Shown piece after piece: positions 7,542 through 53,504 of a stretch of 64,000 nucleotides of DNA (position 1 is the stretch's first letter; each line of letters begins with the position of its first letter). Position numbers and translations under genes: made by a program. Location: positions 861 to 64,860 of the forward strand of contig DBRV01000003.1 in assembly GCA_002306385.1 (NCBI GenBank). The letters are read 5' to 3'. Under the pieces are notes generated by a model. The model ran no database searches and was not told the DNA's origin. It saw only the letters and a program-made list of their open reading frames with translations. The stretch is from Candidatus Falkowbacteria bacterium UBA1359 (GTDB taxonomy: Bacteria > Patescibacteriota > Patescibacteriia > Patescibacteriales > Patescibacteriaceae).

Positions 7542-10500
7542 TTAACCAGCGACTCGCCAAATTTCTTCTAAACTTGTCTCGCCATTAGCTGCTTTAATTA
7601 AACCATCATGGACCATTAGCAGTGAGCCTTGTTTAATGGCCAATTTCTCAAGTTCAGCTTCAGTAGTCAAGGGTTGCTGAATTAATTTTTGCATTTCTGG
7701 AGTAATAATAATAACTTCATAAATACCTAGACGGCCATTATAGCCAATACCACGACACTGAGGACAACCAACTGGTCCATAAAACTGAGGCTTATCCGGC
7801 AACTTTAAGTCTGGCCGCTTACGTAAAAACTCCCAAGCTGGTTCAGCTTGTTCCCAAATATCTGCTGATGGAGTAATGGGTTTTTTACAGTAAGGACACA
7901 AACGTCTAACTAACCGCTGGCCAATAGAGCACTCCAGAGCACTAGCCAGCATCGGCCGGTCAACACCCAGTCCAGCAAAACGAGCAATGGCGCTAGCCGC
8001 ACTATTAGCGTGAATAGTAGATAGAACTAAATGACCAGTTAAACTTGCCTCAATGGCCGTTTTAGCTGTCTCAGGGTCACGAATCTCGCCAATCATAATA
8101 ATATTAGGATTCTGACGTACCAAAGAACGAAGCGCTGCGGCAAAAGTATAGCCACTGGCAGTATCAATTTGAGTTTGCATTACTCCGTCAAGATGATATT
8201 CAATTGGATCTTCAACAGAGATAATTTTAACTTCAGGGGTATTTAATTTTTTAAGTAAAGCATAAAGAGTAGTAGTTTTACCTGCACCGGTAGGACCAGT
8301 AGTAATAATAATACCTTTAGTCTTATGAATAGATTTGTCAATAAGGGATAAAGAGACATCGCGGATGCCTAGATCAGACAAGTCTAAACTAATAGATTGA
8401 CTGGACAGTAAACGGATGACTACAGTTTCTCCATAACCACCAGTAATTAAAGAAACACGACAGTCCATCCGCTCTTGCGGCAAAATCATGCTAAAACGAC
8501 CATCAAAAGTAGGTTGTTTAACGCTTAATGGCAAGCCAATTAAATTTTTAATTTCCCCAATTAATGGAACATAATGCTCCGCACCTAAAGTAACAATATC
8601 ATATAAGATGCCGTCAAGACGATAACGAATTTTTACACCACCCTCAATAGGGTCAATATGAACATCGGCGGCTTTACTGGCAATAGCGCCAGCCATTATG
8701 GCGGTGAGCATCTCACTGGTTGGTTTATTGGCTAATAATGTACCTGCCTGATTTATGTCTTTAGCTATGGCCTCACCAAATTGTAAATCCGCCTCTTTAA
8801 TAGTTAACCCGCGCCCCAGGGTCTGGGAGACAACAATATCATATAAGTCATCAATATAATCCGTCTTGCCCACTACCCTCAAAACTTCTTCCAGTGAAGT
8901 CTGGCCATCAAGCATTTTTAAGATTCCGTCTTGGAGCATAGTAACCATCCCATCTTCAATAGCTTGCCGCATTACCTTAAACGAAGGCGCTCCTTCGTTA
9001 AGCAAAACCTTCATCGGTTCGGTCATGGTAAAAATTTCAAAAATACCAACCCGCCCCTTATAACCAAAACCCGAACAATGCGGGCAGCCTGGCCCTGCTT
9101 TATAGAATACTGGTAATTCTTTAGGCACATCTATATTAGCCTTAGGCGAAATAACTGCTAAAATTTTATTAATTTGCTTCCGTTCTTCTTCGGTTGGTTC
9201 ATGGACCTGTCGACAGTAGGGACATAATTTGCGAACTAAACGCTGGCCAATAACAGCATTAATAGCTGGCGCTAGTTGATAGGGCTGCACCCCCAAATCA
9301 ATTAACCGGGGCAGTACACCAGCAGCATCATTAGTATGAAGAGTAGAAAATACTAGATGACCAGTCAGACTAGCCTGAATGGCAATATTTGCAGTATCAG
9401 CATCACGAATCTCCCCGACCATAATAATATTAGGATCCTGCCGTAAAATTGACTTTAAACCATTAGCAAAAGTGTAGCCTCGGCTTTCATCAACTTGACT
9501 TTGGTTAATTCCCTCCAGCTCATACTCAATGGGGTCCTCCAGGGTAATAATCTTAACGTCCGGAGAGTTTAATTTATTCAGTATAGCATATAGGGTGGTC
9601 GTCTTGCCTGATCCAGTGGGACCAGTAGTTAAAATAAGACCATTAGGTTTAGCCATCTGCTGTTCTAATATGGCCCGGACTGCTGGCCGCATCCCTAAAC
9701 TATCTAGAGGCAAAATAGCTGACTCAGGCCGCAGTAATTTTAAAACAACACTTTCACCATAAGCTGTCGGTAAAAATGAAGCCCTAACAGCTATTTTTTC
9801 TTTAGGGAGAAAAATATCAAAACGGCCATCCTGTGGCTTATTTTCTACATTTATCTTCACCCTGGCCACAACTTTAAGACGGGCTAGGACTCTCTTCCAA
9901 TCAGCTTTAGGAAGAGAGGCTACGTGTTGTAAAACTCCGTCTACTCTCATTCTAATTGCCACCTCATTTTCTTCGGCCTCAATATGGACATCACTACTCT
10001 CTGTTTTTAGAGCGGCAGCAATGATTAAAGTCATAATTTGACTTATATTACCTTCTTTTAACCTCTCATTAAGTGACTTAAAATCGCTCAATTCTTCTTG
10101 ATAGCGCACTAAATCAGCTGGACTAATTTCTACACCCTCTAAACGTTTAATCTTGGGTAGAGTGTCATAAACCCTAAGGCCATACCCTAAACTACGGGGG
10201 GAAATCAAATAAAGCTTGCTTTTAACATGATATTGATTTTTTAATTCTTCTATCTTGCGGGTTAGGCGATCACTTGGTTTAGTTGTGCCAATTCTAATAT
10301 TGTCTCCAACATAGTAAAAACAAATAGCCTGCAAGTTTTCAGCCTCTTCTCGACTTAATAAGACAATTGCCTCAGGACTAATGGGAAAATTAGTCAAATC
10401 AATATATGATAACCCCAATTGAGCTGCTTGAGCCGCTACCTCATTTTCGATGGCCTGTTCGCGTAATTCTTGTTCCCGACGTGCCAATTGCGCAGCGGGG

Positions 10501-10571
10501 GAATTTTTTTCTTGTAGTGATTTACTATTTAATAAATCCTCAATGGATAAATTGTCACTTTCTTCTGTCAT
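7542..10571 (-). CDS. tandem-fused GspE/PilB-type secretion ATPase (two complete ATPase modules in one 1009-aa chain)
   Basis: Module 1 (aa 1-568): GSPII-N-like N-terminus, GPTGSGKTTT (nt 9600-9623), IIMVGEIRD, TGHLVFSTLHTND, CPYC..CPHC. Module 2 (aa 569-1009): GPTGAGKTTT (nt 8274-8297), IIMIGEIRD, TGHLVLSTIHANS, CPYC..CPQC. The junction reads VVG|KTDY at 8868. Confidence 0.85.
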   Translation of the reverse strand: MTEESDNLSIEDLLNSKSLQEKNSPAAQLARREQELREQAIENEVAAQAAQLGLSYIDLTNFPISPEAIVLLSREEAENLQAICFYYVGDNIRIGTTKPSDRLTRKIEELKNQYHVKSKLYLISPRSLGYGLRVYDTLPKIKRLEGVEISPADLVRYQEELSDFKSLNERLKEGNISQIMTLIIAAALKTESSDVHIEAEENEVAIRMRVDGVLQHVASLPKADWKRVLARLKVVARVKINVENKPQDGRFDIFLPKEKIAVRASFLPTAYGESVVLKLLRPESAILPLDSLGMRPAVRAILEQQMAKPNGLILTTGPTGSGKTTTLYAILNKLNSPDVKIITLEDPIEYELEGINQSQVDESRGYTFANGLKSILRQDPNIIMVGEIRDADTANIAIQASLTGHLVFSTLHTNDAAGVLPRLIDLGVQPYQLAPAINAVIGQRLVRKLCPYCRQVHEPTEEERKQINKILAVISPKANIDVPKELPVFYKAGPGCPHCSGFGYKGRVGIFEIFTMTEPMKVLLNEGAPSFKVMRQAIEDGMVTMLQDGILKMLDGQTSLEEVLRVVGKTDYIDDLYDIVVSQTLGRGLTIKEADLQFGEAIAKDINQAGTLLANKPTSEMLTAIMAGAIASKAADVHIDPIEGGVKIRYRLDGILYDIVTLGAEHYVPLIGEIKNLIGLPLSVKQPTFDGRFSMILPQERMDCRVSLITGGYGETVVIRLLSSQSISLDLSDLGIRDVSLSLIDKSIHKTKGIIITTGPTGAGKTTTLYALLKKLNTPEVKIISVEDPIEYHLDGVMQTQIDTASGYTFAAALRSLVRQNPNIIMIGEIRDPETAKTAIEASLTGHLVLSTIHANSAASAIARFAGLGVDRPMLASALECSIGQRLVRRLCPYCKKPITPSADIWEQAEPAWEFLRKRPDLKLPDKPQFYGPVGCPQCRGIGYNGRLGIYEVIIITPEMQKLIQQPLTTEAELEKLAIKQGSLLMVHDGLIKAANGETSLEEIWRVAG

Positions 10572-10575: not shown

Positions 10576-12282
10576 TTAACCTATTTGGTTTTTACGTTCA
10601 TTAACATAGTTAGTCCAATCCTCAACCATATTTACTAAAAACTTAAACGGAGTCTCAATTATAAAATCTAGAAAAAAAACAAAAACGTTAATTTTACTAA
10701 ATTTTTCACTTAAGTATTTACCAACTGAAAGAACTGGCAAGCTAAAAAAGTCAAAAATAGTGCGCCATAAATTTTCTTTTTCTTCAGTAATTTTAAGCTC
10801 ATTGGTAACCTTCTTGATTCGAATGATAAAAAAACTAACAAATACCAAGAAAAATAAGAAAATTAATATACTAACCCAGGTAAAATGAAATATAGTCAGT
10901 AACCAGATAATAGCCCCAAAGGTTATAATAAAAGCTAATCCATATAAGAAATTAAAAATCTTCCTCAAAACACTAGTTTTTTTCTGAGATACCCTTAAAA
11001 TTATTGGTTCTGACCGCTTATATTCTTCAAAAGACAGTTCATTCACTAGTTTAATAATCTTCTCTGTATTATTTTCGTCAGGTACTTTAGTAACTAAAAC
11101 TGAAAAGAACAACAAAGTTGGAGGAAAAAGAATATTAAATAATAGGGCCAACGGTTCAATCTCTGCGCCAAATATCTTATTAGCTGGAATCTCTAGAAGA
11201 ATAACTAAAACACCTTTAGTAATAAAAATATAGATGATACTACGGACAGCGGCTCGCCATAATAATTTTTTAGCTTTAGTATACTTTGTCTCACAAATTT
11301 TCTTAATTTGTCTAGAAAAGGCCTGGGGATCAGTTTTAAAGCTGGTATAAATCCCTACCGGATCTTGGCGTAATAACTCTAATGAAACAGAAACCGCTAC
11401 GGCATAACGGCTAATAATTTTATCAAGTGGCTCAGCAAGCGGGTGTCTTAATTGGCTATTAACAACATTGCGAATTTTCTCAATATTTTTAGCTACCGTT
11501 GGCCAGAGATTCTCAGGTAAATTTTGCCAATCTGCAATATAGTATTTAAATAAAATAAAAGTCAGCATGTCGTCATCTAACTTAGCAAAATTTCGGTTAA
11601 TGGAAAGATAAATTTGAATTGGCAAATCCTTAGCTAGCTCTTGCTGATCAGCTAATTGAATATTTTTAGATAGATATTCATAGAGATTTTTAATAGCTTG
11701 ATTTAATACAGGGTCTTGGCTAAGACGAGCTTCAATTTCGCTAGCTGCTACTGCCAGTAACCAATCCACTAACTGATTATGCTTAGCTATTTCGTCTCTA
11801 ATCTCCCTTAAATCTCTTTTGGTTAAATCCTTACTTATTTCTTTACTTATACTAGGGGCAGCAATATTTTTAATTACCAAATATTTTTTAATAATAACTG
11901 CTACTTCATCAATAAGGCTCAGGGGTAGTTGATTATTTGGCAAATAACCACCACGAATTAATTCTGTTAATAAATGTTCACTAATTTCTGCCGCTTGGCA
12001 CTCTTTAGTATCTCCTTCAATTACGGTTTTGCGTCGTAAAATTCGTTTAATTGCCTCTTTACGGAGCAAATATTCTTCCTTATATTCCACCACATTACGG
12101 ATTTTTTCATAAAAAAAGGCCATGCGGGAAATAACGCTAGAAACCTTAATTTTAGGCTGATCTGATGTATCTTTGACCTGACTATGTTGAGTACGATAAA
12201 TTACTTGCAACAATTGTTTAGTGTTAACATTGGCGGTTAAAGTAAAAGAGGCCTGTTTATGTAACTTAGGATTGAGTATCAT
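10576..12282 (-). CDS. hypothetical membrane protein (about 340-aa cytoplasmic helical N-domain plus about 5 C-terminal TM helices)
   Basis: ORF-track ORF. Its stop lies 4 nt before the tandem ATPase start. Hydrophobic helices from about aa 345. No T2SSF/PilC motifs recognised. Confidence 0.6.
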   Translation of the reverse strand: MILNPKLHKQASFTLTANVNTKQLLQVIYRTQHSQVKDTSDQPKIKVSSVISRMAFFYEKIRNVVEYKEEYLLRKEAIKRILRRKTVIEGDTKECQAAEISEHLLTELIRGGYLPNNQLPLSLIDEVAVIIKKYLVIKNIAAPSISKEISKDLTKRDLREIRDEIAKHNQLVDWLLAVAASEIEARLSQDPVLNQAIKNLYEYLSKNIQLADQQELAKDLPIQIYLSINRNFAKLDDDMLTFILFKYYIADWQNLPENLWPTVAKNIEKIRNVVNSQLRHPLAEPLDKIISRYAVAVSVSLELLRQDPVGIYTSFKTDPQAFSRQIKKICETKYTKAKKLLWRAAVRSIIYIFITKGVLVILLEIPANKIFGAEIEPLALLFNILFPPTLLFFSVLVTKVPDENNTEKIIKLVNELSFEEYKRSEPIILRVSQKKTSVLRKIFNFLYGLAFIITFGAIIWLLTIFHFTWVSILIFLFFLVFVSFFIIRIKKVTNELKITEEKENLWRTIFDFFSLPVLSVGKYLSEKFSKINVFVFFLDFIIETPFKFLVNMVEDWTNYVNERKNQIG

Positions 12283-23016: not shown

Positions 23017-23855
23017 AACAACAACTAAACATAGGGCTGGACATTGGAGGCTCAAAAATTCTAGGCCTCTTATATGACCATAACAACAACAAAGCTTATG
23101 CCGCTCTTCGTCAGCCTATTATCAAAGATAGCTTACCAGCACTAGTCCGACAAATTCACTCAGAAATTGAACGTTTAATTGAAGCTGCTCAAAAAACAGG
23201 AAATATTCCCACTGGTATTGGGATTGGCATCCCCGGAGTAATTAAAAATGGCCGGATAATAAATTGTCCAAACTTAAGTGTATTAAACAATAGAAATTTA
23301 AATAAACTCCTGGCCAAGCAATTCCCTGATAAAAAAATACTATCAGATAATGACGTTAACTGTTTCTTAAGAGCTTATCTAGTTAAACATCCATTACTAA
23401 AAAATACCACCTTTGCTGTAGTTGCCTTGGGCACAGGTATTGGTGGAGCTATCGCTATAAATGGAAATAATATTATCCCTGAACTAGGTATTAGCAGTGA
23501 AATAGGTCATATGATCATTAATTCACAGTCAGGAGCTGATTTAGAGCATTATTACCACAAAATAATGGGTCATCCGGCTGGTCGTCTCTTTACTGCCGCC
23601 CAGGCGGGTGACTTTCTGGCCCAGCAAAAAGTAGAAAAATTTGCTAAAATACTAGGACTTGCCATGGTTAATCTAAATAATCTTATTAATCCTAAAGTAA
23701 TAATTTTAACTGGAGGAGTTAGCCGATACTATAAAACTTATCTACCTCTAGTAAAACAGATAATTAATGAACAAAGCCTAACCCCCAATAGGCCCAAGTG
23801 GATTGTAGGACAAGATCAAAAAGCGGCCGCTATTGGAGCTAGTTTATTATTATAA
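23013..23855 (+). CDS. ROK-family sugar kinase (glucokinase-like)
   Basis: GLDIGGSKI (ATP-binding), ALGTGIGGAIAING and GHM. The usual CxCGxxGC zinc motif is not evident. Confidence 0.7.
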   Translation: MKQQLNIGLDIGGSKILGLLYDHNNNKAYAALRQPIIKDSLPALVRQIHSEIERLIEAAQKTGNIPTGIGIGIPGVIKNGRIINCPNLSVLNNRNLNKLLAKQFPDKKILSDNDVNCFLRAYLVKHPLLKNTTFAVVALGTGIGGAIAINGNNIIPELGISSEIGHMIINSQSGADLEHYYHKIMGHPAGRLFTAAQAGDFLAQQKVEKFAKILGLAMVNLNNLINPKVIILTGGVSRYYKTYLPLVKQIINEQSLTPNRPKWIVGQDQKAAAIGASLLL

Positions 23856-26747
23856 TCCTCTCACCAATAAAGTAAGACTGGGGCTAGTAATGGTCTCTCC
23901 GGTCCACAATTCTGCCTCTGCTGTTATTACATAAGTACCATTTCCTTCTGCCGGCTTTGGGAAATTAATATCAGCCAATCCATTATCGGCCGGCTGGACG
24001 ACAGTAATAAGTTGGGGTGAAGAGCCTTTAATTTTATAATACACCTTAATCTTATGAGCTAATTTAAAATTAGTAATTTTAAGCTGAAGAGCCACTGGAA
24101 AATCAGCTGCTCGATAAGTAAGACCGTCATCAGGGGATAACCAGGTCATTGTTAAATTACCAACATTACTACCTCCCCCTAAAACAATAGTAAGCTCATG
24201 CTTGGTGCAATTTTTAACATCATCACAAGCCTCTATCGCTAATTTGTGCTGGCCATCAGGTAAAAAATCTAAACTAATTTCCTCATCTAAATGGTCAGCG
24301 TTAATGGTTTTTAATAAAAAGCCATTAATATAAAGATTAAAAGTTTTAACCCCTCGAGGTGCAGTAGCAGTAGCATTAACTAATAAAGTATGGTCAGTAA
24401 TTTGTTGCCCTGCTGATGGACTAATAATCGTTAAATCAGGTTGATTTTCAGGAATATGTAAATTATCACTATCTTTGGGTGGCTCACCTAAATTAAGCTT
24501 CTGCTTCTCGGCCCAACTCTTAACCCCCGCTTCCCAGGGAGCAAATTGAGGATCAGCTTCAGGGTTAGTGGGTGCTGGCCCGCGAGGATTCTCACGATCA
24601 ACATAATAAAGAATACAATGTCCCTGCCAATAACGGTCTTCGCGAATCATATCGGGTGGTGTAGAACTAGTAGCTAATAATCCAGAAACTTTATCCACCT
24701 TGACTACAGTAGTAGTCGGAATTACTCCATCTAAAACAGGCTTGCCGGTATCTTCAATTTCTGGCTTTTTAAATGTTTCTACTGGGGTACCAGTTAAAAT
24801 GCGATTCATGTAATTTTGCCAAATTGGAGCAGCGACTACACTACCGTCAGCACCCTTACTCATTGATTTATTGTCATTATTGCCAACCCAAACCCCGGTA
24901 ATAATTGACGGGGTGTAACCAATAGTCCAAGCATCTTTGTAATCATTAGTAGTGCCAGTTTTAACGGCTGCCGGCCGATCATTAAGAGTTAAATGATTTT
25001 TAGCCCCAAAAATATAAGCACGCTCCTCGTTGTCACTAAGAATATCATTTATCTCTCTAGCAATTTGCGGCTCCAAAACTTTAACATGTTCCGACTCGAT
25101 TTCTTCGAGAATTTTACCATCTTTATCTTCCACTTTTAATATATAGCGTGGCTTAACCATCTCTCCGTCGCGCGCAAAAGCACTATAAGCAGCTACGTGT
25201 TCCGCCAATTTTACTTCGCCGCCTCCCAAAACCAAAGATAAACCAAAACGACTTTTATCGTTTAGAGTAGAATAGCCTAAATTTTTAGCTACAGCTAAAA
25301 CATCATCTAACCCTGCCAGATAAAGAGTTTTGACAGCTGGGATATTAAGCGAACCAGCTAAGGCCTTTTTCATGGTAACTGGACCATATTCCTGACCATT
25401 ATAGTTATGTGGCTCATAAGGATTATCTGGGTCTAAAGAAAAATTAGTTATAACATCAAATAAAACCGTCCGTGGCGTATAACCTTTCATAAAAGCAGTG
25501 GCATAAACTATGGGCTTAAAAGATGATCCTGGCTGTCGGGGTCTTAAGGTTAAATTAACCTGCCCATCAATCTCATCATTAAAATAGTCTCTGGAACCTA
25601 CCATCGCTAGAATATCTCCTGATTTAGCATCCATAGAAAATAGGGCGGCATTACTAGCGCCAAAATTCTTAGCATTTTTTTCAGCCTGAGTAGTTACTGC
25701 CTCTTCAGCAATTTTTTGCTTTTCTATATCAATAGTAGAATAAATCTTTAATCCTCCTTGCTCTAACATTTTTTCACCATATTTATCTGCTAACTGATCT
25801 TTAATTTCCATCACAAAATGAGGAGCAATAATATTGCCGTTTTCTTGTAGGGGCTTAAACTGTAAGGGAAAATCTTTAGCTTCAGCTGCTTCCTCTTTAC
25901 TAATATAACCTTGTTCGGCCATTAAATCTAAAATGTAACGTTGCCGAGCTATTAGAGTCTCTTTATTGGGGCCATAGGGTGAATAACGGGTTGGGGCTTG
26001 AGGTAGAGCCGCTAAAATTGCCGCCTCGGCTAAATTAACCTGGCTAATGCTCTTACCGAAATAACGCTGACTAGCAGCTTCAACGCCATAAGCATTAGAG
26101 CCGTAAGGAATTTCATTTAAATACATCTGTAAAATTTCATCTTTAGAAAATTTCTTTTCAATCCGGTAGGCCAAAATAAGCTCCTTAATCTTGCGGGTAT
26201 ATGTTTTTTCTGAAGTTAATAGGGCATTTTTCACAAACTGCTGAGTTAAAGTAGAACCACCAGCCCGCCGATGGAACAAAACATTAGTGACAGCAGTGCG
26301 GAACATGGCCCATAAACTAAAAGCGCCATGGTTATAAAAATCTTTATCTTCAATGGCAATAGTGGCCTCCTTCACATAATCGGGAATCTGGTCAAGATTA
26401 ACCAATGTTCTTTTTTGATCACCATGAATCTCATAAAGGATAGTTTCTCCCTTACGGTCATAGATCTTAGTACTTTGAGCTATCTCTCTCTCTAGCAATT
26501 TATTAGGTGATGGCAAATCACGTGAGAACCACCAAAAGACACAGCTGCCAACAATTAGAAACAACAAAAATAGAGCTCCTAAAAATTTGATGATTTTAAC
26601 CCAATTAAGTCCCCGGCGTGGTTTTCGCTGGCCAGGCCGTCTATTGGTTCTTATAGCTAAAGCTGAACGATTACCTTTCTGATTAATATATCGCCGAGTA
26701 GAATAAGTTGAAGAGGGCTTGCGTACAACTAATTTTGGTATGGGCAT
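23850..26747 (-). CDS. class A penicillin-binding protein (PBP1A-type) with a long Ig-like C-terminal extension
   Basis: Glycosyltransferase motifs EDKDFYNHGA and GGSTLTQQ. Transpeptidase motifs SSFKP, SLN and KTGTT. N-terminal TM anchor. About 250 extra C-terminal residues. Confidence 0.9.
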   Translation of the reverse strand: MPIPKLVVRKPSSTYSTRRYINQKGNRSALAIRTNRRPGQRKPRRGLNWVKIIKFLGALFLLFLIVGSCVFWWFSRDLPSPNKLLEREIAQSTKIYDRKGETILYEIHGDQKRTLVNLDQIPDYVKEATIAIEDKDFYNHGAFSLWAMFRTAVTNVLFHRRAGGSTLTQQFVKNALLTSEKTYTRKIKELILAYRIEKKFSKDEILQMYLNEIPYGSNAYGVEAASQRYFGKSISQVNLAEAAILAALPQAPTRYSPYGPNKETLIARQRYILDLMAEQGYISKEEAAEAKDFPLQFKPLQENGNIIAPHFVMEIKDQLADKYGEKMLEQGGLKIYSTIDIEKQKIAEEAVTTQAEKNAKNFGASNAALFSMDAKSGDILAMVGSRDYFNDEIDGQVNLTLRPRQPGSSFKPIVYATAFMKGYTPRTVLFDVITNFSLDPDNPYEPHNYNGQEYGPVTMKKALAGSLNIPAVKTLYLAGLDDVLAVAKNLGYSTLNDKSRFGLSLVLGGGEVKLAEHVAAYSAFARDGEMVKPRYILKVEDKDGKILEEIESEHVKVLEPQIAREINDILSDNEERAYIFGAKNHLTLNDRPAAVKTGTTNDYKDAWTIGYTPSIITGVWVGNNDNKSMSKGADGSVVAAPIWQNYMNRILTGTPVETFKKPEIEDTGKPVLDGVIPTTTVVKVDKVSGLLATSSTPPDMIREDRYWQGHCILYYVDRENPRGPAPTNPEADPQFAPWEAGVKSWAEKQKLNLGEPPKDSDNLHIPENQPDLTIISPSAGQQITDHTLLVNATATAPRGVKTFNLYINGFLLKTINADHLDEEISLDFLPDGQHKLAIEACDDVKNCTKHELTIVLGGGSNVGNLTMTWLSPDDGLTYRAADFPVALQLKITNFKLAHKIKVYYKIKGSSPQLITVVQPADNGLADINFPKPAEGNGTYVITAEAELWTGETITSPSLTLLVRGL

Positions 26748-26820
26748 AAAAATATTTTATAATGAAATTATAGCAAATAATTGGAGATAATCAAAAATGA
26801 CTATCTAGGGCCGCCTACTC

Positions 26821-26849
26821 TTGCCGACCAACAAGGGTTATGTTATAAT
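26821..26849 (+). promoter_or_regulatory. promoter of the pilin-like array (TTGCCG-17-TATAAT with TGn)
   Basis: -35 at 26821-26826, TGtTATAAT at 26841-26849, 40 nt upstream of the ATG at 26890. Confidence 0.55.
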
Positions 26850-26889
26850 AGCTCCATCTTAATCTAATTTGTGTCTTAATAACATTTTT

Positions 26890-27279
26890 ATGAAACTATC
26901 TAAAAAAATTCTCTTTATTTGTTTACTCCTGCAATGTTTAATTATTAATCCTTTAACTTTACAGCCAGCTAAAGCTCAGGTTGATTTATGGGGCAACAAT
27001 GTGGGCACTAACGCTTTCAACAATATCGGCTTTAAAGAAAAAGATCCCCGGGAAATAGTGGCCAATATTATTAAAATAGCCTTGGGTTTCTTGGGAACTA
27101 TTGCAGTAGTATTGATTCTCTATGCTGGCTTCTTGTGGATGACAGCGGGTGGTAAACCAGATACGGTCAGCAAAGCCCAAAAAATTATGGCGGCAGCCGT
27201 CATTGGCCTAGTTATCATTCTAGCTTCCTATGGATTGACCTTGTTTATAACCAGATCATTAAGTAATGCCGTTGGATAA
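26890..27279 (+). CDS. TrbC/VirB2-like T4SS-pilin-like small membrane protein, paralogue 1
   Basis: Signal peptide ending AKA-Q, a variable segment, TM1, the FLWMTAGGKPD loop, KAQK, then TM2. Start moved to ATG 26890 (the track begins at GTG 26869). Confidence 0.7.
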   Translation: MKLSKKILFICLLLQCLIINPLTLQPAKAQVDLWGNNVGTNAFNNIGFKEKDPREIVANIIKIALGFLGTIAVVLILYAGFLWMTAGGKPDTVSKAQKIMAAAVIGLVIILASYGLTLFITRSLSNAVG

Positions 27280-27322
27280 AATTTAATAAAAATTAATTCA
27301 TTTATAAGCTAATAACAAAATT

Positions 27323-27712
27323 ATGAAAAAATGGTTAATTGGCCTTATGTCGTTAGTATGGGCCTGCAGCTTTATATCTTTATCCCCTGCGCCAGTTAGA
27401 GCAATTGACGTGTGGGGAACTGGCACCATAGATGCCTATACTAATGATCAAAATGGTGTGGGATTTTCTGAAACCGATCCACGAACAGTAGTAGCTCGAA
27501 TTATAAATATAGCTCTGGGTTTCTTGGGAACTATTGCAGTAGTATTAATTATTGTAGCTGGCTTTCAGTGGATGACAGCGGCTGGTAATGAAGAAAAAAT
27601 TGGTAAAGCCAAAAAATTAATGTCAGCAGCGGTCATTGGTTTGGTTATTGTTCTAATGGCTTTTGCTCTAAGCAGCTTTATTATTAATGCTGTTATTACT
27701 GCCGTTAGCTAA
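27323..27712 (+). CDS. TrbC/VirB2-like pilin-like protein, paralogue 2
   Basis: Signal peptide ending VRA-I, then GFLGTIAVVLI-FQWMTAAGNEEKIGKAKK-TM2. Shares an identical 30-nt block (gggtttcttgggaactattgcagtagtatt) with paralogue 1. Confidence 0.7.
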   Translation: MKKWLIGLMSLVWACSFISLSPAPVRAIDVWGTGTIDAYTNDQNGVGFSETDPRTVVARIINIALGFLGTIAVVLIIVAGFQWMTAAGNEEKIGKAKKLMSAAVIGLVIVLMAFALSSFIINAVITAVS

Positions 27713-27735
27713 TTTTGCTATATTAGCTACAGCTC

Positions 27736-27763
27736 AAATTTGCCAAAATATTTTGGCAAATTT
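27736..27763. repeat. perfect 28-bp palindrome AAATTTGCCAAAAT|ATTTTGGCAAATTT between paralogues 2 and 3 (hairpin, terminator or operator candidate)
   Basis: Read directly. It is followed by T. Confidence 0.8.
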
Positions 27764-27816
27764 TGCTTCAGCCTAATTACTAATTGTGCTGAGACAAAAT
27801 TTTTAAATGATTTCTC

Positions 27817-28212
27817 ATGGGCAAAAAATTAAGTATCATCAAAAATTCTTATAAATTATTCTGGATTTTCATTTTAGGGGTGGCCTTAATTCAAAATATT
27901 ATTATCCCCAATGCTAAGGCAGCCTCAAACTCTACTTTTGGCCTAGAGACAACGGCTAGCCATGCTGGTCTTGTAACGAATACTACCCTCCAGGCCAAGG
28001 TTGGACAAATAGTTGGGTCGGTTTTAGCTTTAATTGGAGTGCTTTTCTTTGTTCTAATGATCTATGGTGGTATCACCTGGATGACGGCTGGTGGTAATGA
28101 AACTACTGTCACCAACGCTAAAAAAACTATTACTGCTGCAATTATTGGACTAGTCATAGTAATTTCAGCCTATGCAATAACTCTTTTCTTGGGAGAAGGA
28201 TTGGCGGGATAA
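27817..28212 (+). CDS. TrbC/VirB2-like pilin-like protein, paralogue 3
   Basis: Signal peptide ending AKA-A, an S/T/N-rich variable segment, then TM1-ITWMTAGGNETTVTNAKK-TM2. Confidence 0.7.
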   Translation: MGKKLSIIKNSYKLFWIFILGVALIQNIIIPNAKAASNSTFGLETTASHAGLVTNTTLQAKVGQIVGSVLALIGVLFFVLMIYGGITWMTAGGNETTVTNAKKTITAAIIGLVIVISAYAITLFLGEGLAG

Positions 28213-28218
28213 TTTATT

Positions 28219-28626
28219 ATGAAAAAAAGAAAAAAATTTTTTGTATTAAGTGTTTTTACCCTCATCGTCTTCACACTCTACGTGCCTTTAAATTGTTATT
28301 CTAAAAATAATACTGCTAATGCTGCAGCAATTGATCTTTTCTCTAATAGTGCCAAGACAACTGCTAGTCAAATGGGTTATGACCCTCAAACTAACCAATT
28401 AACTATATTAAGTCAAATAAGTCTTATTGTTAATATTGTCTTTGGCCTAACTGGTGTCATCTTTTTTATCTTAATAATCTATGGCGGCATTCTGTGGATG
28501 ACTGCTGGCGGTAATGATGAACAAGTTAAAAAAGCACAAAATATTATTCAACGAGCCGCTATTGGACTTTTTATTGTGGTGCTGGCCTATGCTATTACTT
28601 ACTTCATTCTTAAACGAATTTTGTGA
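28219..28626 (+). CDS. TrbC/VirB2-like pilin-like protein, paralogue 4
   Basis: Signal peptide ending ANA-A, a variable segment, then IYGGILWMTAGGNDEQVKKAQNIIQRAAIGLFIVVLAYAITYFI. Confidence 0.7.
   Translation: MKKRKKFFVLSVFTLIVFTLYVPLNCYSKNNTANAAAIDLFSNSAKTTASQMGYDPQTNQLTILSQISLIVNIVFGLTGVIFFILIIYGGILWMTAGGNDEQVKKAQNIIQRAAIGLFIVVLAYAITYFILKRIL
28470..28608 (+). repeat. 139-nt conserved block, copy 1 of 3 (membrane-core coding part of paralogue 4)
   Basis: My hand alignment to 28868-29006 gives about 16 mismatches in 139 nt. Confidence 0.8.
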
Positions 28627-29072
28627 TAAAATCTCATTTCTTTAAAATAATCAATCAACGTGTGGTCATTATTATTATAACAATCATGACCATAATAATG
28701 CCCCTGCACTTTATAACGGCGCAAGGTATAAAGGATGCCTTCTCTGACAACACAATTAAAACGACAGGGAAAGCTGCTGGTTATGACACCACAAAAGACA
28801 GCGTTCTCCCTATAGTCGCTAATATTGTTAATATCGTCTATGGCTTAATTGGTGTTATCTTTTTTGTCTTAATAATCTATGCTGGCATTCTGTGGATGAC
28901 TGCTGGCGGTAATGATACACAAGTTAAAAAAGCACAAAACATTATTCAACGGTCAGCTATTGGACTTCTTATTGTTGTATTGGCCTATGCTATTACATAT
29001 TTTATCTTCAATGTCGTCTTTCGTGTCCATTATGTGCCATCAAACATTAGAGATTATTATATAACTACATAA
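28623..29072 (+). CDS. TrbC/VirB2-like pilin-like protein, paralogue 5
   Basis: The GTG start overlaps the paralogue 4 stop (GTGA). Signal peptide ending TAQ-G. Core IYAGILWMTAGGNDTQVKKAQNIIQRSAIGLLIVVLAYAITYFIF plus a unique C-terminal tail. Confidence 0.65.
   Translation: MIKSHFFKIINQRVVIIIITIMTIIMPLHFITAQGIKDAFSDNTIKTTGKAAGYDTTKDSVLPIVANIVNIVYGLIGVIFFVLIIYAGILWMTAGGNDTQVKKAQNIIQRSAIGLLIVVLAYAITYFIFNVVFRVHYVPSNIRDYYITT
28868..29006 (+). repeat. 139-nt conserved block, copy 2 of 3
   Basis: See copies 1 and 3. A 74-nt core (tatgctggcattctgtggatgac..cattattcaacg) differs from copy 3 at a single position. Confidence 0.8.
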
Positions 29073-29077
29073 GAAAT

Positions 29078-29476
29078 ATGACTAAAAAAATATTTGCTAT
29101 AAGTGCTTGGACTATAATTATAGCCGGACAGCTATTATTTAGTGGCCACACAGTTAAAGCTCAATCAACAAGTTCGGTAATGGAACATCTGAGATTAGTG
29201 GCTGGGGGTAGTTATGACATCAATACCAACGAGGATACACTATTAAACAATATAGCCACTATAATACAAGTAGTCCTTGGCTTGCTGGGTACCATTTTTG
29301 TCATCTTAATGATTTATGCTGGCATTCTGTGGATGACCGCTGGCGGTAATGATACACAAGTTAAAAAAGCACAAAACATTATTCAACGAGCGGTTATTGG
29401 CCTGATTATTGTTGTCCTAGCCTATGCTATTACTTACTTCATATTTAAGGAACTCGGAGGATTAGGGCCAGCCTAA
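29078..29476 (+). CDS. TrbC/VirB2-like pilin-like protein, paralogue 6
   Basis: Signal peptide ending VKA-Q. Core IYAGILWMTAGGNDTQVKKAQNIIQRAVIGLIIVVLAYAITYFIF. Confidence 0.7.
   Translation: MTKKIFAISAWTIIIAGQLLFSGHTVKAQSTSSVMEHLRLVAGGSYDINTNEDTLLNNIATIIQVVLGLLGTIFVILMIYAGILWMTAGGNDTQVKKAQNIIQRAVIGLIIVVLAYAITYFIFKELGGLGPA
29305..29443 (+). repeat. 139-nt conserved block, copy 3 of 3
   Basis: My hand alignment to copy 2 gives about 17 mismatches in 139 nt, clustered outside the 74-nt core. Confidence 0.8.
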
Positions 29477-29483: not shown

Positions 29484-29503
29484 CCCCGCTATTACTAGCG
29501 GGG
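29484..29503 (-). terminator. hairpin CCCCGCT-attact-AGCGGGG; terminator for the minus-strand lipoprotein gene
   Basis: A GC-rich 7-bp stem. The U-run exists only in the minus direction (plus strand aaaataaaa at 29475-29483). Confidence 0.6.
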
Positions 29504-29514: not shown

Positions 29515-30030
29515 TTATTTGTTAACAATAACCACCGCCTTTTGTCCGGCAGAAATCTGCCGGATTATTGTTGCCCGTTGGTTGTTTCCCCAGCCAACGG
29601 TAAAAACTAAGGTCCCCACAGGTACCCTAGCCTCAACGAGGCTGGCTTCCCCGGGGTTCAAAATTATTCCAGCGAATGGACCATCCAAAACGACGATCCG
29701 ATAATCACTAGCATTCACTAGTCTTGCCAAAGTGGTGCCGAAGATAGCTTGGCCCATTACCTGATTAGCTAAGTCAAGCCAGGCTTGACTAGTCTCGGGA
29801 GTTGTGGCTTCACGGGCCTTTTGCAAATAATAGGCCCGTAAATTTGTCCAGTCTTGGTCACCCCTCAACTGGATCCAATTCTCAGCAGGTAGGACGCCTT
29901 TCGCGTCAACAGCTAAAATCTGTTGACCGTTGGCGTCCAGCCCAACCTCCACTCTGGCCGTATTGCTGCTACAAGCAGCAATAACTAGAGCAATAATCAC
30001 TAGGGCGATAAAAAAGTATGGGCGTCTCAT
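29515..30030 (-). CDS. lipoprotein of unknown function, compositionally foreign
   Basis: Signal peptide with lipobox LVIAAC-S. SD GGAGG at 30037-30041. Hand G+C counts are 32/60 (29581-29640) and 33/60 (29881-29940). Confidence 0.7.
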   Translation of the reverse strand: MRRPYFFIALVIIALVIAACSSNTARVEVGLDANGQQILAVDAKGVLPAENWIQLRGDQDWTNLRAYYLQKAREATTPETSQAWLDLANQVMGQAIFGTTLARLVNASDYRIVVLDGPFAGIILNPGEASLVEARVPVGTLVFTVGWGNNQRATIIRQISAGQKAVVIVNK

Positions 30031-30096
30031 TTAACACCTCCTTATATTTTATGATTTTTAAGTACTATAATAGTAAAATAACACATAAAGTTAATT

Positions 30097-30135
30097 TTGT
30101 CAATAATTGACAAAGCTGCAATTTCTGAGATAATT
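30097..30135 (+). promoter_or_regulatory. nusA promoter candidate (TTGACA at 30107-30112, GATAAT at 30129-30134) overlapped by the 17-bp palindrome TTGTCAATAATTGACAA
   Basis: Read directly. The palindrome spans 30097-30113. Confidence 0.45.
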
Positions 30136-32558: not shown

Positions 32559-33695
32559 TTATTTACGAAGGGGGACTACAATATATTGATATTCATTACT
32601 ACCGGGTAGAGTTATTTCACATGCACTAATACCATCAATTATTTTGAATAAAACCTGATTAACCGGAAGAATATTAAGGCAATCTAATAAATAGCGATAA
32701 TTTAAGCGGATAGAGTTATCTTTACCATTTATTTGGGCAGCTAATTTTGCCTGATGGCTTCCAATTTGTCCTGACACAGCTTCAATTATTATTTCTTGCT
32801 GATCAGCATTAATAGTCAAATCAACGGCATTAGAATTGGCGCTAAAAATGGAGGCCATTTTTATGGCTCTTAAAAATTCTCCTCGGTCAATAGTTATTTC
32901 AGTTTTAAAATCAGTAGGAATAACTTGAATATAATCAGGATAATGTCCTTCAATTAAACGGGACACTATCTCTATTCCTTGATAAACAAATAAGACTTGA
33001 TTGTCAGCGATATGTATCTGTATTTGATCACTATCTTCAGTTAATTCATCGTTGGAAAAATTAATAATTCTTGCTAATTCCTGCATGGTCTTAAAAGGAA
33101 CAATAATTTTAAGTCCTTCTGAATCTAGAGTGCCAAAATCTAGATGAAAATTAATTTCTTTTTTAGCTAAACGGAAACTATCTGTAGATACTAGATTGAT
33201 ATATTTATTATTAATATCGAATAAAACCCCAGTTAATTCTAGCCGATTATCAGTAGGATTAATGGCAAATAAAAGTTGATTAAGGGCCAACTTTAAATCA
33301 GAAACAGCTAAAGTGAGACTGATTTTTTTATCAATTTGAGGAATTACTGGAAAATCTTCAGCATTTTGTCCTTTTATAATAGTATTGTATTTTTTACAAT
33401 TAATTTTTAAATCTTGTTTATTTATTAATTGAATATCAATTTTTTCGTTAGGCAAAAGAGCAATATAATCACTAAAAATTTTAGCATCTATAGCAATTGC
33501 TCCCTCTTTATTAACTTTACCTCTAATTTGCTTAGTGATGCCTATTTCTAAGTTAGTAGCTGCTAAAGTAATAATGTTATCTTTTGCTTTAATTAAAATA
33601 TTATTTAAAATAGGCATACTAAGATTTTTTTCGGCAATATGGCTAACAATGGTTAATCCTTGATGTAAATTTTTTTGAAGAATAGTTAATTGCAT
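32559..33695 (-). CDS. dnaN: DNA polymerase III beta sliding clamp
   Basis: 378 aa with a three-domain clamp pattern (MQLTILQKNLHQGL..., LEITGVLF, SFRLA), immediately downstream of dnaA. Confidence 0.9.
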   Translation of the reverse strand: MQLTILQKNLHQGLTIVSHIAEKNLSMPILNNILIKAKDNIITLAATNLEIGITKQIRGKVNKEGAIAIDAKIFSDYIALLPNEKIDIQLINKQDLKINCKKYNTIIKGQNAEDFPVIPQIDKKISLTLAVSDLKLALNQLLFAINPTDNRLELTGVLFDINNKYINLVSTDSFRLAKKEINFHLDFGTLDSEGLKIIVPFKTMQELARIINFSNDELTEDSDQIQIHIADNQVLFVYQGIEIVSRLIEGHYPDYIQVIPTDFKTEITIDRGEFLRAIKMASIFSANSNAVDLTINADQQEIIIEAVSGQIGSHQAKLAAQINGKDNSIRLNYRYLLDCLNILPVNQVLFKIIDGISACEITLPGSNEYQYIVVPLRK

Positions 33696-33896: not shown

Positions 33897-35282
33897 TTAA
33901 TACACCGAAGTAATTGATTGAGATATTTGTTCAATATCTTGTCTAATTTTAGAATTATTTTGAATATCTCGCTCAATTTTCGCACAAGCATGCATCGCAG
34001 TAGTATGGTCTCGTCCACCTAATTCTTGACCAATAAAAGGGAAAGAAGCATCCATTCTGGTTCTTAATAAATACATAGCTATTTGTCTGGGGATAACCAA
34101 TTCTTTTTTACGGCTACTGCCGGTAAGTTCAGATAAATTTAGGTTATAAAAATTAGCCACCGCTTCTAATATTTTTTGGGGAGTAGATAGATTATTAGCT
34201 TGAATGGAAATAAAAAAATCTTTTAGTACTTGCTTGGCGATAGATAAATCTGGTTCACAATTATGGAATTGGCAGAAACCAATAATTCTATTAAGTGCTC
34301 CCTCTAGTTCACGAATATTATTACTAATATTCGTGGCAATGTATTGAATAATTGATTGGTCTAAGGGAAAGTTTTTCTGTTGGCATTTAGAATTTAAGAT
34401 AGCCATTCTGGTTTCTAAATCAGGTTGCCCAATATCAGCAACCATACCCCATTCAAAACGCGTAATAAGACGAGCCTCTACAGCTTTCATATTTCTCGGT
34501 GAACGGTCAGAAGTAATAACTATTTGTTTATTGGCTCGGTGGAGCTGATCAAAAGTATAAAAAAATTCTTGTTGGGTACCATCTTTGCCAGCCATAAATT
34601 GTATGTCGTCAACTAGTAATAAGTCTACATTTCTGTAGACACTCTTAAAAGTATTACCCTGTCCATGATAGACGGCATCAACATAATCATTAGTAAATTT
34701 TTCTGAGGTAACATATAGGACTTTTTTACCAGATTTGAGTACTTCATGACCAATAGCTTGGAGAAGGTGAGTTTTACCTAAACCGACGCCACCATAGATA
34801 AAAAGAGGGTTATATGTTTCTCCGGGTTGGCGGATAGCTGCCCATGAAGCGGCATGAGCTAATTCATTATGTTTACCTACGATAAAGGTTTCAAAAGTAT
34901 ATTTAGGATTAAGACCAGCTGCCAGGCAAAGTGATTCATCTTTTGAGGGGTTAGTTTTATAGGCCTTATTCTCTTTTTCTTCAGGAGGGTCAGGAGCAAG
35001 AAAATTGCTTTTAGCTTCCTTGGGCTTAGTTTTGATAATATATTTTATCCCTTTAAGCTTATTACCGGTAACTTTATAAAAAGTTTTAGTAATATCTTTG
35101 GAAAATTTATTTTCAAACCAAGCCTGAGTGAAGGCATTAGGAACACCAATAGTTAAAATGTCATCTTGATAATCAAAAATAAAAGAATTCTTAAACCAGG
35201 TGGTAAAACTGGCTTTAGACATGTTCAGTTCAGCTTCACTAAGGATAGCTTGCCAAATTTGTTCTAGGGAGGAGTGATCCAT
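33897..35282 (-). CDS. dnaA: chromosomal replication initiator DnaA
   Basis: Walker A GGVGLGKTHL, Walker B LLLVDDIQF, and the DNA-binding domain VIPRQIAMYL...GGRDHTT. Confidence 0.97.
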   Translation of the reverse strand: MDHSSLEQIWQAILSEAELNMSKASFTTWFKNSFIFDYQDDILTIGVPNAFTQAWFENKFSKDITKTFYKVTGNKLKGIKYIIKTKPKEAKSNFLAPDPPEEKENKAYKTNPSKDESLCLAAGLNPKYTFETFIVGKHNELAHAASWAAIRQPGETYNPLFIYGGVGLGKTHLLQAIGHEVLKSGKKVLYVTSEKFTNDYVDAVYHGQGNTFKSVYRNVDLLLVDDIQFMAGKDGTQQEFFYTFDQLHRANKQIVITSDRSPRNMKAVEARLITRFEWGMVADIGQPDLETRMAILNSKCQQKNFPLDQSIIQYIATNISNNIRELEGALNRIIGFCQFHNCEPDLSIAKQVLKDFFISIQANNLSTPQKILEAVANFYNLNLSELTGSSRKKELVIPRQIAMYLLRTRMDASFPFIGQELGGRDHTTAMHACAKIERDIQNNSKIRQDIEQISQSITSVY

Positions 35283-51088: not shown

Positions 51089-51099
51089 AATGAAACATG

Positions 51100-51128
51100 T
51101 TGACATTTTTTTACGGCCATGCTAACAT
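51100..51128 (+). promoter_or_regulatory. promoter TTGACA-17-TAACAT for the 3D-domain gene
   Basis: -35 at 51100-51105, -10 at 51123-51128. It lies inside the 5' extension proposed by the ORF track. Confidence 0.5.
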
Positions 51129-51186
51129 CCCCCATCACTTTTATACTACCCATGCTTGTTTTTTAGTTTCTGGATCTAAAAGTTTT

Positions 51187-51768
51187 ATGGATTATTCGTG
51201 TTGTAGTCCTTATTTGTTTAGTAAAAAACGTAATAGACAAATTAGTTGTTGGTTGCTAGGGGTAGTAATCTGGGAGTTATTACTATTGCCAAGGCCAATT
51301 TTGGCTGATGCAAAACAAAGGCCCAGGGCTCAGGCCAAGTCATTGGTATTTGATTTGACTATTAATAATATAGAGCCAAGTGATTTAGCTAATGAAAGAT
51401 TATCGCTTCGTTTGCCCGAAAAGGATATTATAGTAGAAGAGATTACCAAAACAGTTAGTGAGTCTAGTAGTAGTCTTTATATTATTACTGCCTATAATTC
51501 TAGTATGAGCCAGTGTGATGCTTCGCCTTGCATTACTGCTAGTGGTTTTAATGTTTGTAAACATAATATTGAAGATACGGTGGCAGCTAATTTTTTACCC
51601 TTAGGGACGAAGATCAAGATTCCAGATTTATTTGGCGAGCAAATTTTTGTGGTGCGAGACAGAATGCATCCTCGCCATCATAATCAGATTGATGTGTGGA
51701 TGAAAGAATATAAAAAAGCTAAACAGTTTGGTGTTAAAGTGGCAAGAATTGAAATTATAAGTTTTTAA
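51187..51768 (+). CDS. 3D-domain (MltA/RlpA-like DPBB) cell-wall-binding protein
   Basis: ITAYNSSMSQCDASPCITASG...TVAANFLPLGTKIKIPDLFGEQIFVVRDRM..IDVWM is typical of the 3D domain. Start moved to ATG 51187, downstream of the promoter. Confidence 0.7.
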   Translation: MDYSCCSPYLFSKKRNRQISCWLLGVVIWELLLLPRPILADAKQRPRAQAKSLVFDLTINNIEPSDLANERLSLRLPEKDIIVEEITKTVSESSSSLYIITAYNSSMSQCDASPCITASGFNVCKHNIEDTVAANFLPLGTKIKIPDLFGEQIFVVRDRMHPRHHNQIDVWMKEYKKAKQFGVKVARIEIISF

Positions 51769-51777
51769 TTTTATATC

Positions 51778-51805
51778 AAAACACTCCATAGGTATGGAGT
51801 GTTTT
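51778..51805. terminator. bidirectional terminator AAAACACTCCATA-gg-TATGGAGTGTTTT
   Basis: A 13-bp perfect stem with A-run and T-run arms, between convergent genes (the 3D-domain gene and rpsT). Confidence 0.75.
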
Positions 51806-51833
51806 GAGTTATAAGTTTAAAATTTTTATTTCT

Positions 51834-52100
51834 TCATTGCCCTTTGGTGGCGTTTAGTTTTTTTTGCAAGCGAGATTTTTTTCTGCTAGCCGTATTCTTT
51901 TTAATTACCCCCTTTTTAGCAGCCTTATCTAATGTTTTAGCGGCTTGTTTGACTAAATCATGGGCTTGGGGATTTTTGGCACTAATAGCCCGGCGACTGC
52001 CCTTGACCATTTTTTTAATTTCCTGTCGAGTTGCAGCATTACGGGTAGTACGTCTCTTGCTTTTGCGCAACTCTTTTTTGGCTGATTTTAGATTAGGCAT
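51834..52100 (-). CDS. rpsT: 30S ribosomal protein S20
   Basis: MPNLKSAKKELRKSKRRTTRN..., 88 aa, basic. Confidence 0.9.
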   Translation of the reverse strand: MPNLKSAKKELRKSKRRTTRNAATRQEIKKMVKGSRRAISAKNPQAHDLVKQAAKTLDKAAKKGVIKKNTASRKKSRLQKKLNATKGQ

Positions 52101-52147
52101 AATTGGAATTAATAAAATAAATAAAGCATTAAAGCAAATTTATCATA

Positions 52148-52936: not shown

Positions 52937-53037
52937 AATTATAAATTAATAAAAGGCTGGACTTCTTTAATTATTATATAGGTTTTTTAATAAAGAAAAA
53001 AGGCCGATTTGTTTTTAATCGACCTCTGAAAAATCAA

Positions 53038-53469: not shown

Positions 53470-53504
53470 TTTTGCCTCCTTTTATTTTAAAGAACAGTTT
53501 TGTT

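Follow-up and report, generated by a model that had tools for sequence, protein, structure and literature searches.

An array of six predicted VirB2-like pilin genes, apart from secretion machinery, in a Falkowbacteria genome

Why should a bacterium keep six divergent pilin genes in a row with no secretion machinery beside them, and what might so many copies be for? The question is raised by a 64,000-nucleotide stretch of contig DBRV01000003.1 (positions 861 to 64,860; assembly GCA_002306385.1) of Candidatus Falkowbacteria bacterium UBA1359, hereafter the window. Six consecutive open reading frames (ORFs) on its + strand, termed p1 to p6, span 26869/26890-29476 and encode products of 129-149 amino acids (aa). 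The original prediction, made from the sequence, saw in them a tandem array of TrbC/VirB2-like pilins of a type IV secretion system (T4SS). Patescibacteria, to which the organism belongs, account for a considerable part of the bacterial diversity not yet in culture, and they live attached to other microbes. It is judged quite probable that the array supplies VirB2-like pilins which a distant T4SS would build into a pilus or conduit contacting the host, with the variable tips of the subunits outside the cell.

Six proteins of one pilin family

The genes are located at 26890..27279 (p1, 129 aa), 27323..27712 (p2, 129 aa), 27817..28212 (p3, 131 aa), 28219..28626 (p4, 135 aa), 28623..29072 (p5, 149 aa) and 29078..29476 (p6, 132 aa), all on the + strand. 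The start of p1 is the ATG at 26890; an in-frame TTG at 26869 is less likely, and gene calls on sister contigs use the 129-aa form. All six products score above the gathering cutoff of 26.6 bits of the Pfam family PF18895 (T4SS_pilin) and cover most of its 71 model positions. The scores range from 31.0 to 37.6 bits (p1, 31; p2, 37.6; p3, 36.9; p4, 36.4; p5, 33.2; p6, 37). All other Pfam matches of the six fall below their own cutoffs, and in 120 homologues the precomputed Pfam annotation likewise gives PF18895. By their sequences, then, the six genes encode VirB2-like pilins and fall in the T4SS_pilin family of Patescibacteria, and the affiliation first proposed, with a pilin family common in the candidate phyla radiation, agrees as well with the literature on Patescibacteria arrays.

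The common plan of the six same-strand genes is confirmed by the ORF list, the alignment and hydropathy. Each protein displays three hydrophobic segments, namely the h-region of the signal peptide, a first transmembrane helix (TM1) and a second (TM2), together with a basic n-region. The W-M-T-A-x-G turn is invariant and is followed in every copy by a Lys-rich stretch with 2-4 Lys/Arg residues, as had been described, and a conserved core of 65 residues lies behind a divergent N-terminal region. The cleavage motifs originally quoted are all present in the sequences; in p5, cleavage between I-T-A and Q suits the -3/-1 rule better than cleavage between T-A-Q and G. The mature N-terminus was first described as an S/T/N-rich segment of 35-45 aa. 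The tip predicted to be exposed, from the cleavage site to TM1, measures about 22-30 aa, and an S/T/N-rich composition is clear only in p3, p4 and p6 (0.31-0.41 vs 0.18 for the six proteins overall). Features of type IV pilus pilins are not found in the six, which have ordinary Sec signals with A-x-A-type sites and no motif of G followed by F-T-L-I-E.

In an AlphaFold2 model of p2 (predicted local distance difference test score, pLDDT, 70.9), a signal helix at residues 3-19 and a disordered stretch at 21-49 precede a helical hairpin formed by residues 53-85 and 90-128, with pLDDT 82-91. A Foldseek search of the Protein Data Bank (PDB) with this model yields helical hairpins of a generic kind, the ATP synthase c subunit and CnrX among them, at E values of at least 0.9.

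Homology to VirB2 comes from profile comparison. A profile of 61 family sequences was aligned by hhalign with Agrobacterium tumefaciens VirB2, whose sequence was checked against PDB 8cue; the probability is 69%, the E value 4.4e-5 and the identity 35% over 54 columns. The alignment spans the T-D-P motif, helix 1 and the W-M motif, and pairs S-E-T-D-P-R...W-M of p2 with G-G-T-D-P-A...W-M of VirB2. The protein p2, which is a duplicate of the p1 type (53% identity) and bears the T-D-P-R motif in common with VirB2, is also the only one with a match to VirB2 model PRK13857, below threshold at E 0.006. A profile built from the six sequences alone was tried against the PDB and returned G-protein-coupled receptor transmembrane segments, which are spurious. 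With A. tumefaciens VirB2 and RP4 TrbC (PF04956) the six proteins share a long Sec signal, an N-terminus containing T-D-P, and two hydrophobic helices with a short turn after the W-M motif. They differ in that the mature protein has about 25 aa more, as a variable tip, and in the lack of virB3-virB11 linkage.

The best NCBIfam match of all six is NF045849, the Mbov_0395 family of pilin-like conjugal transfer proteins from Mycoplasma integrative conjugative elements. At 23.3-37.6 bits (E 1e-9 to 4e-5) it stays below the 40-bit cutoff, which marks the six as related proteins and not as equivalog members. This likeness to Mbov_0395 and MMCAP2_0565, which occur in Mycoplasma elements and in T4SS clusters of Firmicutes, fits the proposed monoderm ancestry of Patescibacteria T4SSs, in the mating-pair formation class MPF-FATA. 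Unlike the free-standing six, genes of the Mbov_0395 type are single or paired inside conjugative clusters.

Small proteins with two transmembrane helices could also be holins, bacteriocin-immunity proteins or other membrane proteins unconnected to secretion, and several weak Pfam matches to unrelated membrane families (E 1e-4 to 0.1) would go with such an origin. These matches are the ones below their own cutoffs, whereas the PF18895 cutoff is passed by every copy. No holin family was found in Pfam, and a search of PHROGs gave nothing or only families of unknown function at E >0.003. In addition, a cleavable Sec signal precedes the hairpin, and the genomic context is one of housekeeping genes without a prophage. 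Pfam, PHROGs and context together effectively refute a holin or phage origin, to which hardly any credence is given.

A pilin array without adjacent machinery

No member of the VirB4, VirB6, VirD4, TrsD or relaxase families was detected in the window by a Pfam scan of every ORF of at least 110 aa. ORFs of the window without a family show nothing T4SS-like at E values up to 0.5, and a phmmer probe with a monoderm VirB4 has no match there. Conspecific contigs extend the view to about 10 kb past the left edge, where a MoxR-type AAA_5 ATPase, a VWA/CoxE protein and housekeeping genes are found, and to about 2.5 kb past the right edge, where there is an APH-like kinase; no T4SS genes occur in either extension. 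The absence of VirB4, VirB6, VirD4 and relaxase genes from the window, read originally from the ORFs, is thus upheld by the Pfam scan and the phmmer probe. With the pilin model passed, no holin or phage family matched and no T4SS locus at the probed edges, the description as a lone pilin array stands.

Two further candidates were weighed. A pair of ORFs past the left edge, of 565 aa and 597 aa, was considered as a divergent VirB4/TrsD and proved to be the MoxR-type AAA_5 ATPase and the VWA/CoxE protein. The former is the gene that the window cuts at its edge (1-1313, - strand) and that continues outside it (L105:3842-7335 in a conspecific contig); the VWA/CoxE-like protein after it varies in length between strains, from 597 to 649 aa. 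The second candidate is a 568-aa ORF at 10576-12282 (- strand), with no detectable family. It precedes the sole secretion ATPase of the window, a 1009-aa protein at 7542-10571 (- strand) with two complete T2SSE (PilB/PilT-type) domains fused. This fused PilB-like gene had been singled out as the only secretion ATPase, 16 kb from the array, and the scan agrees; it is part of a type IV pilus system, different from that of the array.

The isolation of the array is shared by its relatives. Among GTDB representatives, where the same species is absent, the closest matches are 70% identical, and the relatives belong to Falkowbacteria, Uhrbacteria, Magasanikbacteria and Komeilibacteria, that is, to the ABY1 class, in which the source genome probably falls as well. 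A hidden Markov model built from the six proteins detects tandem arrays in 55 related loci, 33 of which have exactly six genes. VirB4 is found within 10 kb of none of the 55 array loci, nor of any of about 100 related loci. The genes that recur beside the arrays encode a family 2 glycosyltransferase, a solute-binding protein, a major facilitator superfamily transporter, RecN/SMC, ComM, Lgt and pyruvate phosphate dikinase (PPDK), several of which also occur elsewhere in the window; no T4SS machinery recurs among these neighbours. The unlinked arrangement is the rule among the ABY1-class relatives sampled. With the two closest genomes, every array position has its own one-to-one orthologue; among more distant ones, orthology is found mainly at the first and last positions. 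Best matches of p1 in relatives occupy array position 1 (a conserved first-position class), and p6 represents the last-position class. Within the present genome p1/p2 and p4/p5/p6 form the duplicate groups.

A survey of 3035 Patescibacteria genomes with PF18895, PF04956 and CONJScan profiles places these observations in a wider frame (Quinonero-Coronel et al., 2025; PMC12102498). VirB4 is present in most of the genomes. VirB2-like pilins occur in 1948 VirB4-containing assemblies and are near virB4 in only 1135, and 441 arrays of 2-11 pilin genes were found in 383 assemblies, with a within-array identity that averages 25% (PMC12102498). T4SS genes of Patescibacteria are often near dnaA/dnaN. 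For two ABY1 genomes, Table S3 of that study lists VirB4/TrsD genes hundreds of genes away from VirB2 genes and flags them as not associated; in GCA_000991205.1 the two sets are at genes 233-234 vs 464-466. The pilins of both genomes were retrieved with the virB2 profile of the mating-pair formation class MPF-T. In this light the novelty first attached to the present locus was overrated, as Patescibacteria are already known to have such arrays, the near-origin position and pilin genes separate from virB4 (PMC12102498).

The array here belongs to the same Pfam family as those of the survey, of Southlakia epibionticum ML1 (PMC10633639) and of Nanosynbacter lyticus TM7x. It shares with the Patescibacteria arrays the tandem same-strand order, the low identity between copies, the position near dnaA/dnaN and a monoderm genome of epibiont type. 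Southlakia epibionticum also has six copies, divergent VirB2-like pilins that are essential for epibiotic growth (PMC10633639, PMC12857230). Its pilin genes are inside the T4SS cluster, unlike the array here and those of ABY1 relatives, which stand alone among housekeeping genes.

Linkage of the family to a T4SS is found further afield. A tblastn search of plasmids led to a gene on the Pontibacillus megaplasmid NZ_CP062975.1 that is annotated as an Mbov_0395-family pilin-like protein. This cluster (L103:11989-12901 and L103:16438-18303) includes two adjacent PF18895-like pilin genes, and the annotated one is five genes upstream of a VirB4-like ATPase of the CD1110 family and a large peptidoglycan hydrolase. 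The locus is a typical Gram-positive T4SS cluster. Monoderm T4SSs are generally stated to lack VirB2-like genes, which is hard to square with the pilins of this cluster. They suggest that the pilins of Patescibacteria could have been acquired along with the MPF-FATA system.

A different kind of relative bears on the topology. Pairs of giant ORFs, about 600-3400 aa in length, are found in 22 of 80 related loci, for example at L066:7214-9877 and L066:9911-15622 of the Falkowbacteria chromosome CP066698.1, and also in loci L033, L012 and L007. Four giants that were scanned with Pfam (881-1903 aa) contain a signal peptide, a PF18895 hairpin above cutoff and Big_5/TIG/Big_7/fn3 repeats. By their domain order they look like pilin-adhesin fusions. 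No giant ORF with a pilin hairpin is present in the window, and there is no mention of such proteins in the cited literature on Patescibacteria pilins. Because the giant relatives carry immunoglobulin (Ig)-like repeats after TM2, the segment that follows TM2 is placed outside the cell, as in VirB2.

The giants, together with the missing machinery, also suggest a role independent of any T4SS. The hairpin might be a generic anchor that displays short variable peptides, or adhesin repeats in the giants, and the genome may lack VirB4. Such a role would agree with the absence of T4SS genes from the 64 kb, from the probed edges and from within 10 kb of about 100 loci, with the N-terminal place of the hairpin in proteins of 880-1900 aa rich in Ig-like domains, and with the non-specific outcome of the fold search. 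Against it stand the homology of the family to VirB2 and the linkage of the family to VirB4 in Firmicutes and Saccharibacteria. VirB4 is moreover present in most of the Patescibacteria genomes surveyed, including both ABY1 genomes with unlinked pilins (PMC12102498). A free anchor of this kind is regarded as improbable.

Variation among strains of one species

What the copies may be for is best addressed by strains of the same species. Exact-protein look-ups retrieved 22 conspecific contigs from many metagenomes and two NCBI metagenome-assembled genomes. Four array haplotypes are distinguished: A (the window, L093 and L097), B (five contigs), C (eight) and D (four, with the array complete in three of them). 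Within a haplotype, sequences differ at 0-29 positions over about 1.66 kb. Between haplotypes, the products ROK, PBP1 (a penicillin-binding protein), NusA and HolA are 98-100% identical, with a proportion of synonymous differences (pS) of 0.01-0.04.

The array itself is two-tiered, p1-p3 being nearly invariant in the species and p4-p6 diversified in their predicted exposed parts. Between haplotypes p1 and p2 are 98-100% identical, p1 being 100% identical in all strains; haplotype C alone differs in p3, and six of the seven amino-acid changes there are in the tip. Haplotype A compared with the others shows identities of 88-93% for p4, 53-55% for p5 and 71-75% for p6. In p6 the tips of A and B-D are 42-47% identical and the cores 95-97%. 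The most variable copy is p5, which also has a variable C-terminal tail of about 20 aa. The p4 core, p5 and p6 have pS values of 0.3-0.66.

These differences are concentrated in a strain-hypervariable recombination block at 28330..29260 (+ strand), from the middle of p4 to the middle of p6, with breakpoints within conserved cores. In a sliding window, identity to a haplotype C strain drops at ~28330, from about 1.00 to 0.47-0.84, and recovers at ~29260 to 1.00. Synonymous divergence (dS) in the block is 0.4-1.6, vs 0-0.07 in flanking genes. Strain groupings conflict inside the array: the p4 tip groups AB vs CD, and the p4 core A vs BCD, whereas the p6 tip and the p5 C-terminal tail, which exists in three forms, group BC vs D. 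Conflicting groupings within 1 kb require recombination. In haplotype C, furthermore, the cores of p4 and p5 are 93% identical, and 99% over the loop and TM2, with a shared exact stretch of 163 nt, whereas the orthologous pairs between strains are 84% and 75% identical. The closer likeness of the paralogues points to gene conversion between neighbours. A silent-cassette mechanism of the pilE/pilS type was considered and set aside, as each of the six genes comes with a start codon and signal peptide of its own and the six appear co-transcribed.

Substitutions separate tip from core. A ratio of non-synonymous to synonymous divergence (dN/dS) for the tips of the six paralogues would be meaningless, with synonymous sites saturated and the region unalignable, and near-identical strains were used instead. 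Among closely related allele pairs, the tips have 28 non-synonymous and 3 synonymous differences (pN/pS 2.6), and the cores of the same pairs 3 and 10 (pN/pS 0.1). The contrast of tip and core is significant (Fisher p = 2.5e-5), as is that of tips and flanking genes (p = 9e-9). Paralogue cores have dN/dS values of 0.16-0.40. The original suggestion that a constant core with variable tips reflects surface variation thereby receives direct support, and the comparison of N-terminus with core that had been proposed comes out in its favour when made on strains. Neither PMC12102498 nor PMC10633639 describes a species in which allele replacement and gene conversion affect only half of the array.

A mechanism can be outlined for the preferred reading. 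Each pilin would be exported by the Sec pathway and cut by signal peptidase I, and would then reside in the membrane as a two-helix hairpin, with the N-terminal tip and the C-terminus outside and the Lys-rich turn in the cytoplasm. A monoderm-derived T4SS of the VirB4/TrsD/VirB3/VirB6 type, encoded elsewhere in the genome, would take up the subunits and build them into a pilus or envelope-spanning conduit that touches the host cell of the epibiont. The variable tips and the p5 tail would end on the outer surface. Three processes would have diversified p4-p6: the replacement of alleles, recombination whose breakpoints fall in the cores, and gene conversion of neighbouring cores. While the topology is predicted for each copy, we infer that a T4SS encoded at a distance assembles the pilins, that a filament forms and that the host is contacted. 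The pattern of variation fits adaptation of a contact surface to different hosts, or escape from recognition by host or phage.

Several points weigh against this reading. The TrbC family PF04956, named at the outset beside PF18895 as a model to search with, has no direct match among the six in the Pfam scan, and only the PF18895 half of that check came out as expected. The 61-sequence profile finds VirB2 in the PDB only at a non-significant E value of 0.82, and Foldseek returned no T4SS pilin from the PDB, a two-helix hairpin being too simple to discriminate. In the window and at its probed edges no T4SS ATPase or channel gene is shown for the source genome, and to our knowledge a pilus of these proteins has not been visualised in any Patescibacterium. 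The tip pN/pS of 2.6 is not significantly above 1 (binomial p = 0.07) and is suggestive only; relaxed constraint with recombination, in the absence of positive selection, could account for the tip excess. Lastly, all sequences are metagenome assemblies, and the 163-nt exact repeat of haplotype C exceeds some assembler k-mers; the longest exact repeat between paralogues in the window is 50 nt. Chimerism of assembly is unlikely to underlie the mosaics, since each haplotype occurs in 3-8 independent assemblies made with different assemblers.

The same homology and T4SS linkage would serve equally well for T4SS parts confined to the envelope, a channel or stalk with no extended pilus, in which the copies are stoichiometric or partly redundant channel subunits. 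VirB2 is needed in many T4SSs with or without pili (PMC12857230). The recurrence of six copies, in 33 of 55 loci of ABY1 relatives and in Saccharibacteria, hints at a fixed set and not at open-ended variation, and the invariance of p1-p3 within the species is in keeping with this. On the other hand, replacements and the non-synonymous bias gather in the predicted extracellular tips and in the p5 tail, as for exposed surfaces, and the pilin-Ig fusions of relatives imply display outside the cell. A channel-only role is accordingly held to be unlikely, though it is the more credible of the alternatives to a host-contacting structure.

Layout of the locus and its meaning

The array is probably transcribed as one operon. 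A promoter-like site at 26821..26849 (+ strand), 5' of p1, consists of TTGCCG, a 17-nt spacer and a TG-extended TATAAT, with 10 of 12 matches and an extended -10; the first base of the array as originally delimited, 26821, is that of its -35 box. No terminator-like site on the + strand was found within the array, and the GTG with which p5 begins overlaps the stop codon of p4 by 4 nt. The array accordingly looks like a single operon. A GC-rich hairpin at 29484..29503, of 8 pairs including 6 G-C and followed by a T-run on the - strand, lies between the convergent array and a lipoprotein gene and is probably a bidirectional terminator.

Two strain observations touch this layout. In haplotype C a 68-nt tandem duplication of the promoter and leader (TATAAT and 5' untranslated region) is found upstream of p1, and the intergenic region measures 210 nt (L081:9358-9567) vs 142 nt in the window (26748-26889); this duplication may alter expression of the array. 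In contig L099 (JGI 3300026178) PBP1 is split into two ORFs and p2 and p4 are fragmented, which is probably a sequencing or assembly error and not pseudogenisation.

Housekeeping genes around the replication origin form the surroundings. Upstream is PBP1 (23850-26747, - strand). Downstream, in order, are the lipoprotein gene (- strand), nusA, holA, dnaN (32559-33695) and dnaA (33897-35282), with rnpA, yidC, infB, polA and ftsH beyond according to Pfam scans, so that the array is 4.4 kb from dnaN/dnaA. The cumulative GC skew has its minimum at about 28-34 kb of the window. With the array on the + strand and to the left of the dnaA/rnpA origin region, its transcription is probably head-on to replication.

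The lipoprotein gene, at 29515..30030 (- strand), encodes 171 aa with the lipobox IAAC and has a GC content of 0.49 vs 0.37 for the window; no Pfam or NCBIfam family was matched by its product. Only the two closest genomes (L001 and L002) keep it in this place, directly after the array. A second divergent block in the sliding-window comparison, at 29660-30100, lies over this gene, whose pS between haplotypes is about 0.27-0.30 while the adjoining nusA is identical. It is possible that the lipoprotein is another variable surface protein with a link to the array.

The pilin array of 23 related genomes is followed immediately downstream by genes for Lgt, a 209-223-aa protein of no named family and PPDK (compare L019:13573-16703). 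Here the same trio is at 51097-55980, 22 kb from the array. The difference indicates rearrangement around the origin region.

Several variable VirB2 copies are also known from the Trw system of Bartonella, with tandem trwL (VirB2) and trwJ (VirB5), and from the virB2 clusters of Anaplasma and other Rickettsiales. T4SS pilin genes of Bartonella are hotspots of intra-species recombination, with synonymous divergence (Ks) far above that of neighbouring genes (PMC3483213), the same pattern as found here. In these organisms diversification is attributed to the matching of host surfaces, and in Rickettsiales T4SS genes are scattered across the genome. The systems differ from the present one in being diderm MPF-T systems of intracellular animal pathogens. 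The Bartonella copies are, in addition, within the trw cluster, whereas the array here has no VirB5-like gene with it and belongs to a cell with a monoderm envelope, whose partner is presumably a bacterium too.

A more elaborate proposal, which is possible but advanced only tentatively, is that of a two-tier device for host specificity. In it p1-p3 would serve as a scaffold, and p4-p6, perhaps with the lipoprotein, as cassettes whose tips are swapped between strains. If this were true, the cores would act as recombination substrates, and swaps of the tips and tail of a T4SS pilus would switch or broaden the range of bacterial hosts. The locus would then be a bacterium-on-bacterium counterpart of Bartonella Trw, with the array uncoupled from its machinery and placed beside the replication origin.

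The locus adds nothing categorically new. It is ordinary and of a kind already described, with evidence that speaks for surface variation. The within-species strain comparison is new; together with the recurrence of six genes and the pilin-adhesin fusions it is of modest value. In Patescibacteria the T4SS and its pilins are essential for the attached lifestyle in the one species tested, and the array provides a well-sampled natural example, sampled in 22 assemblies that represent four haplotypes. Recombination generates the variation, which affects only the predicted outward parts of three pilins among the six and so points to the subunits that are likely to touch the host. A hypothesis is thereby offered for cultivated systems, namely that the swapping of tips changes host range. 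The free-standing array also indicates that the supply of pilins need not adjoin the machinery, and that surveys centred on virB4 can miss such arrays.

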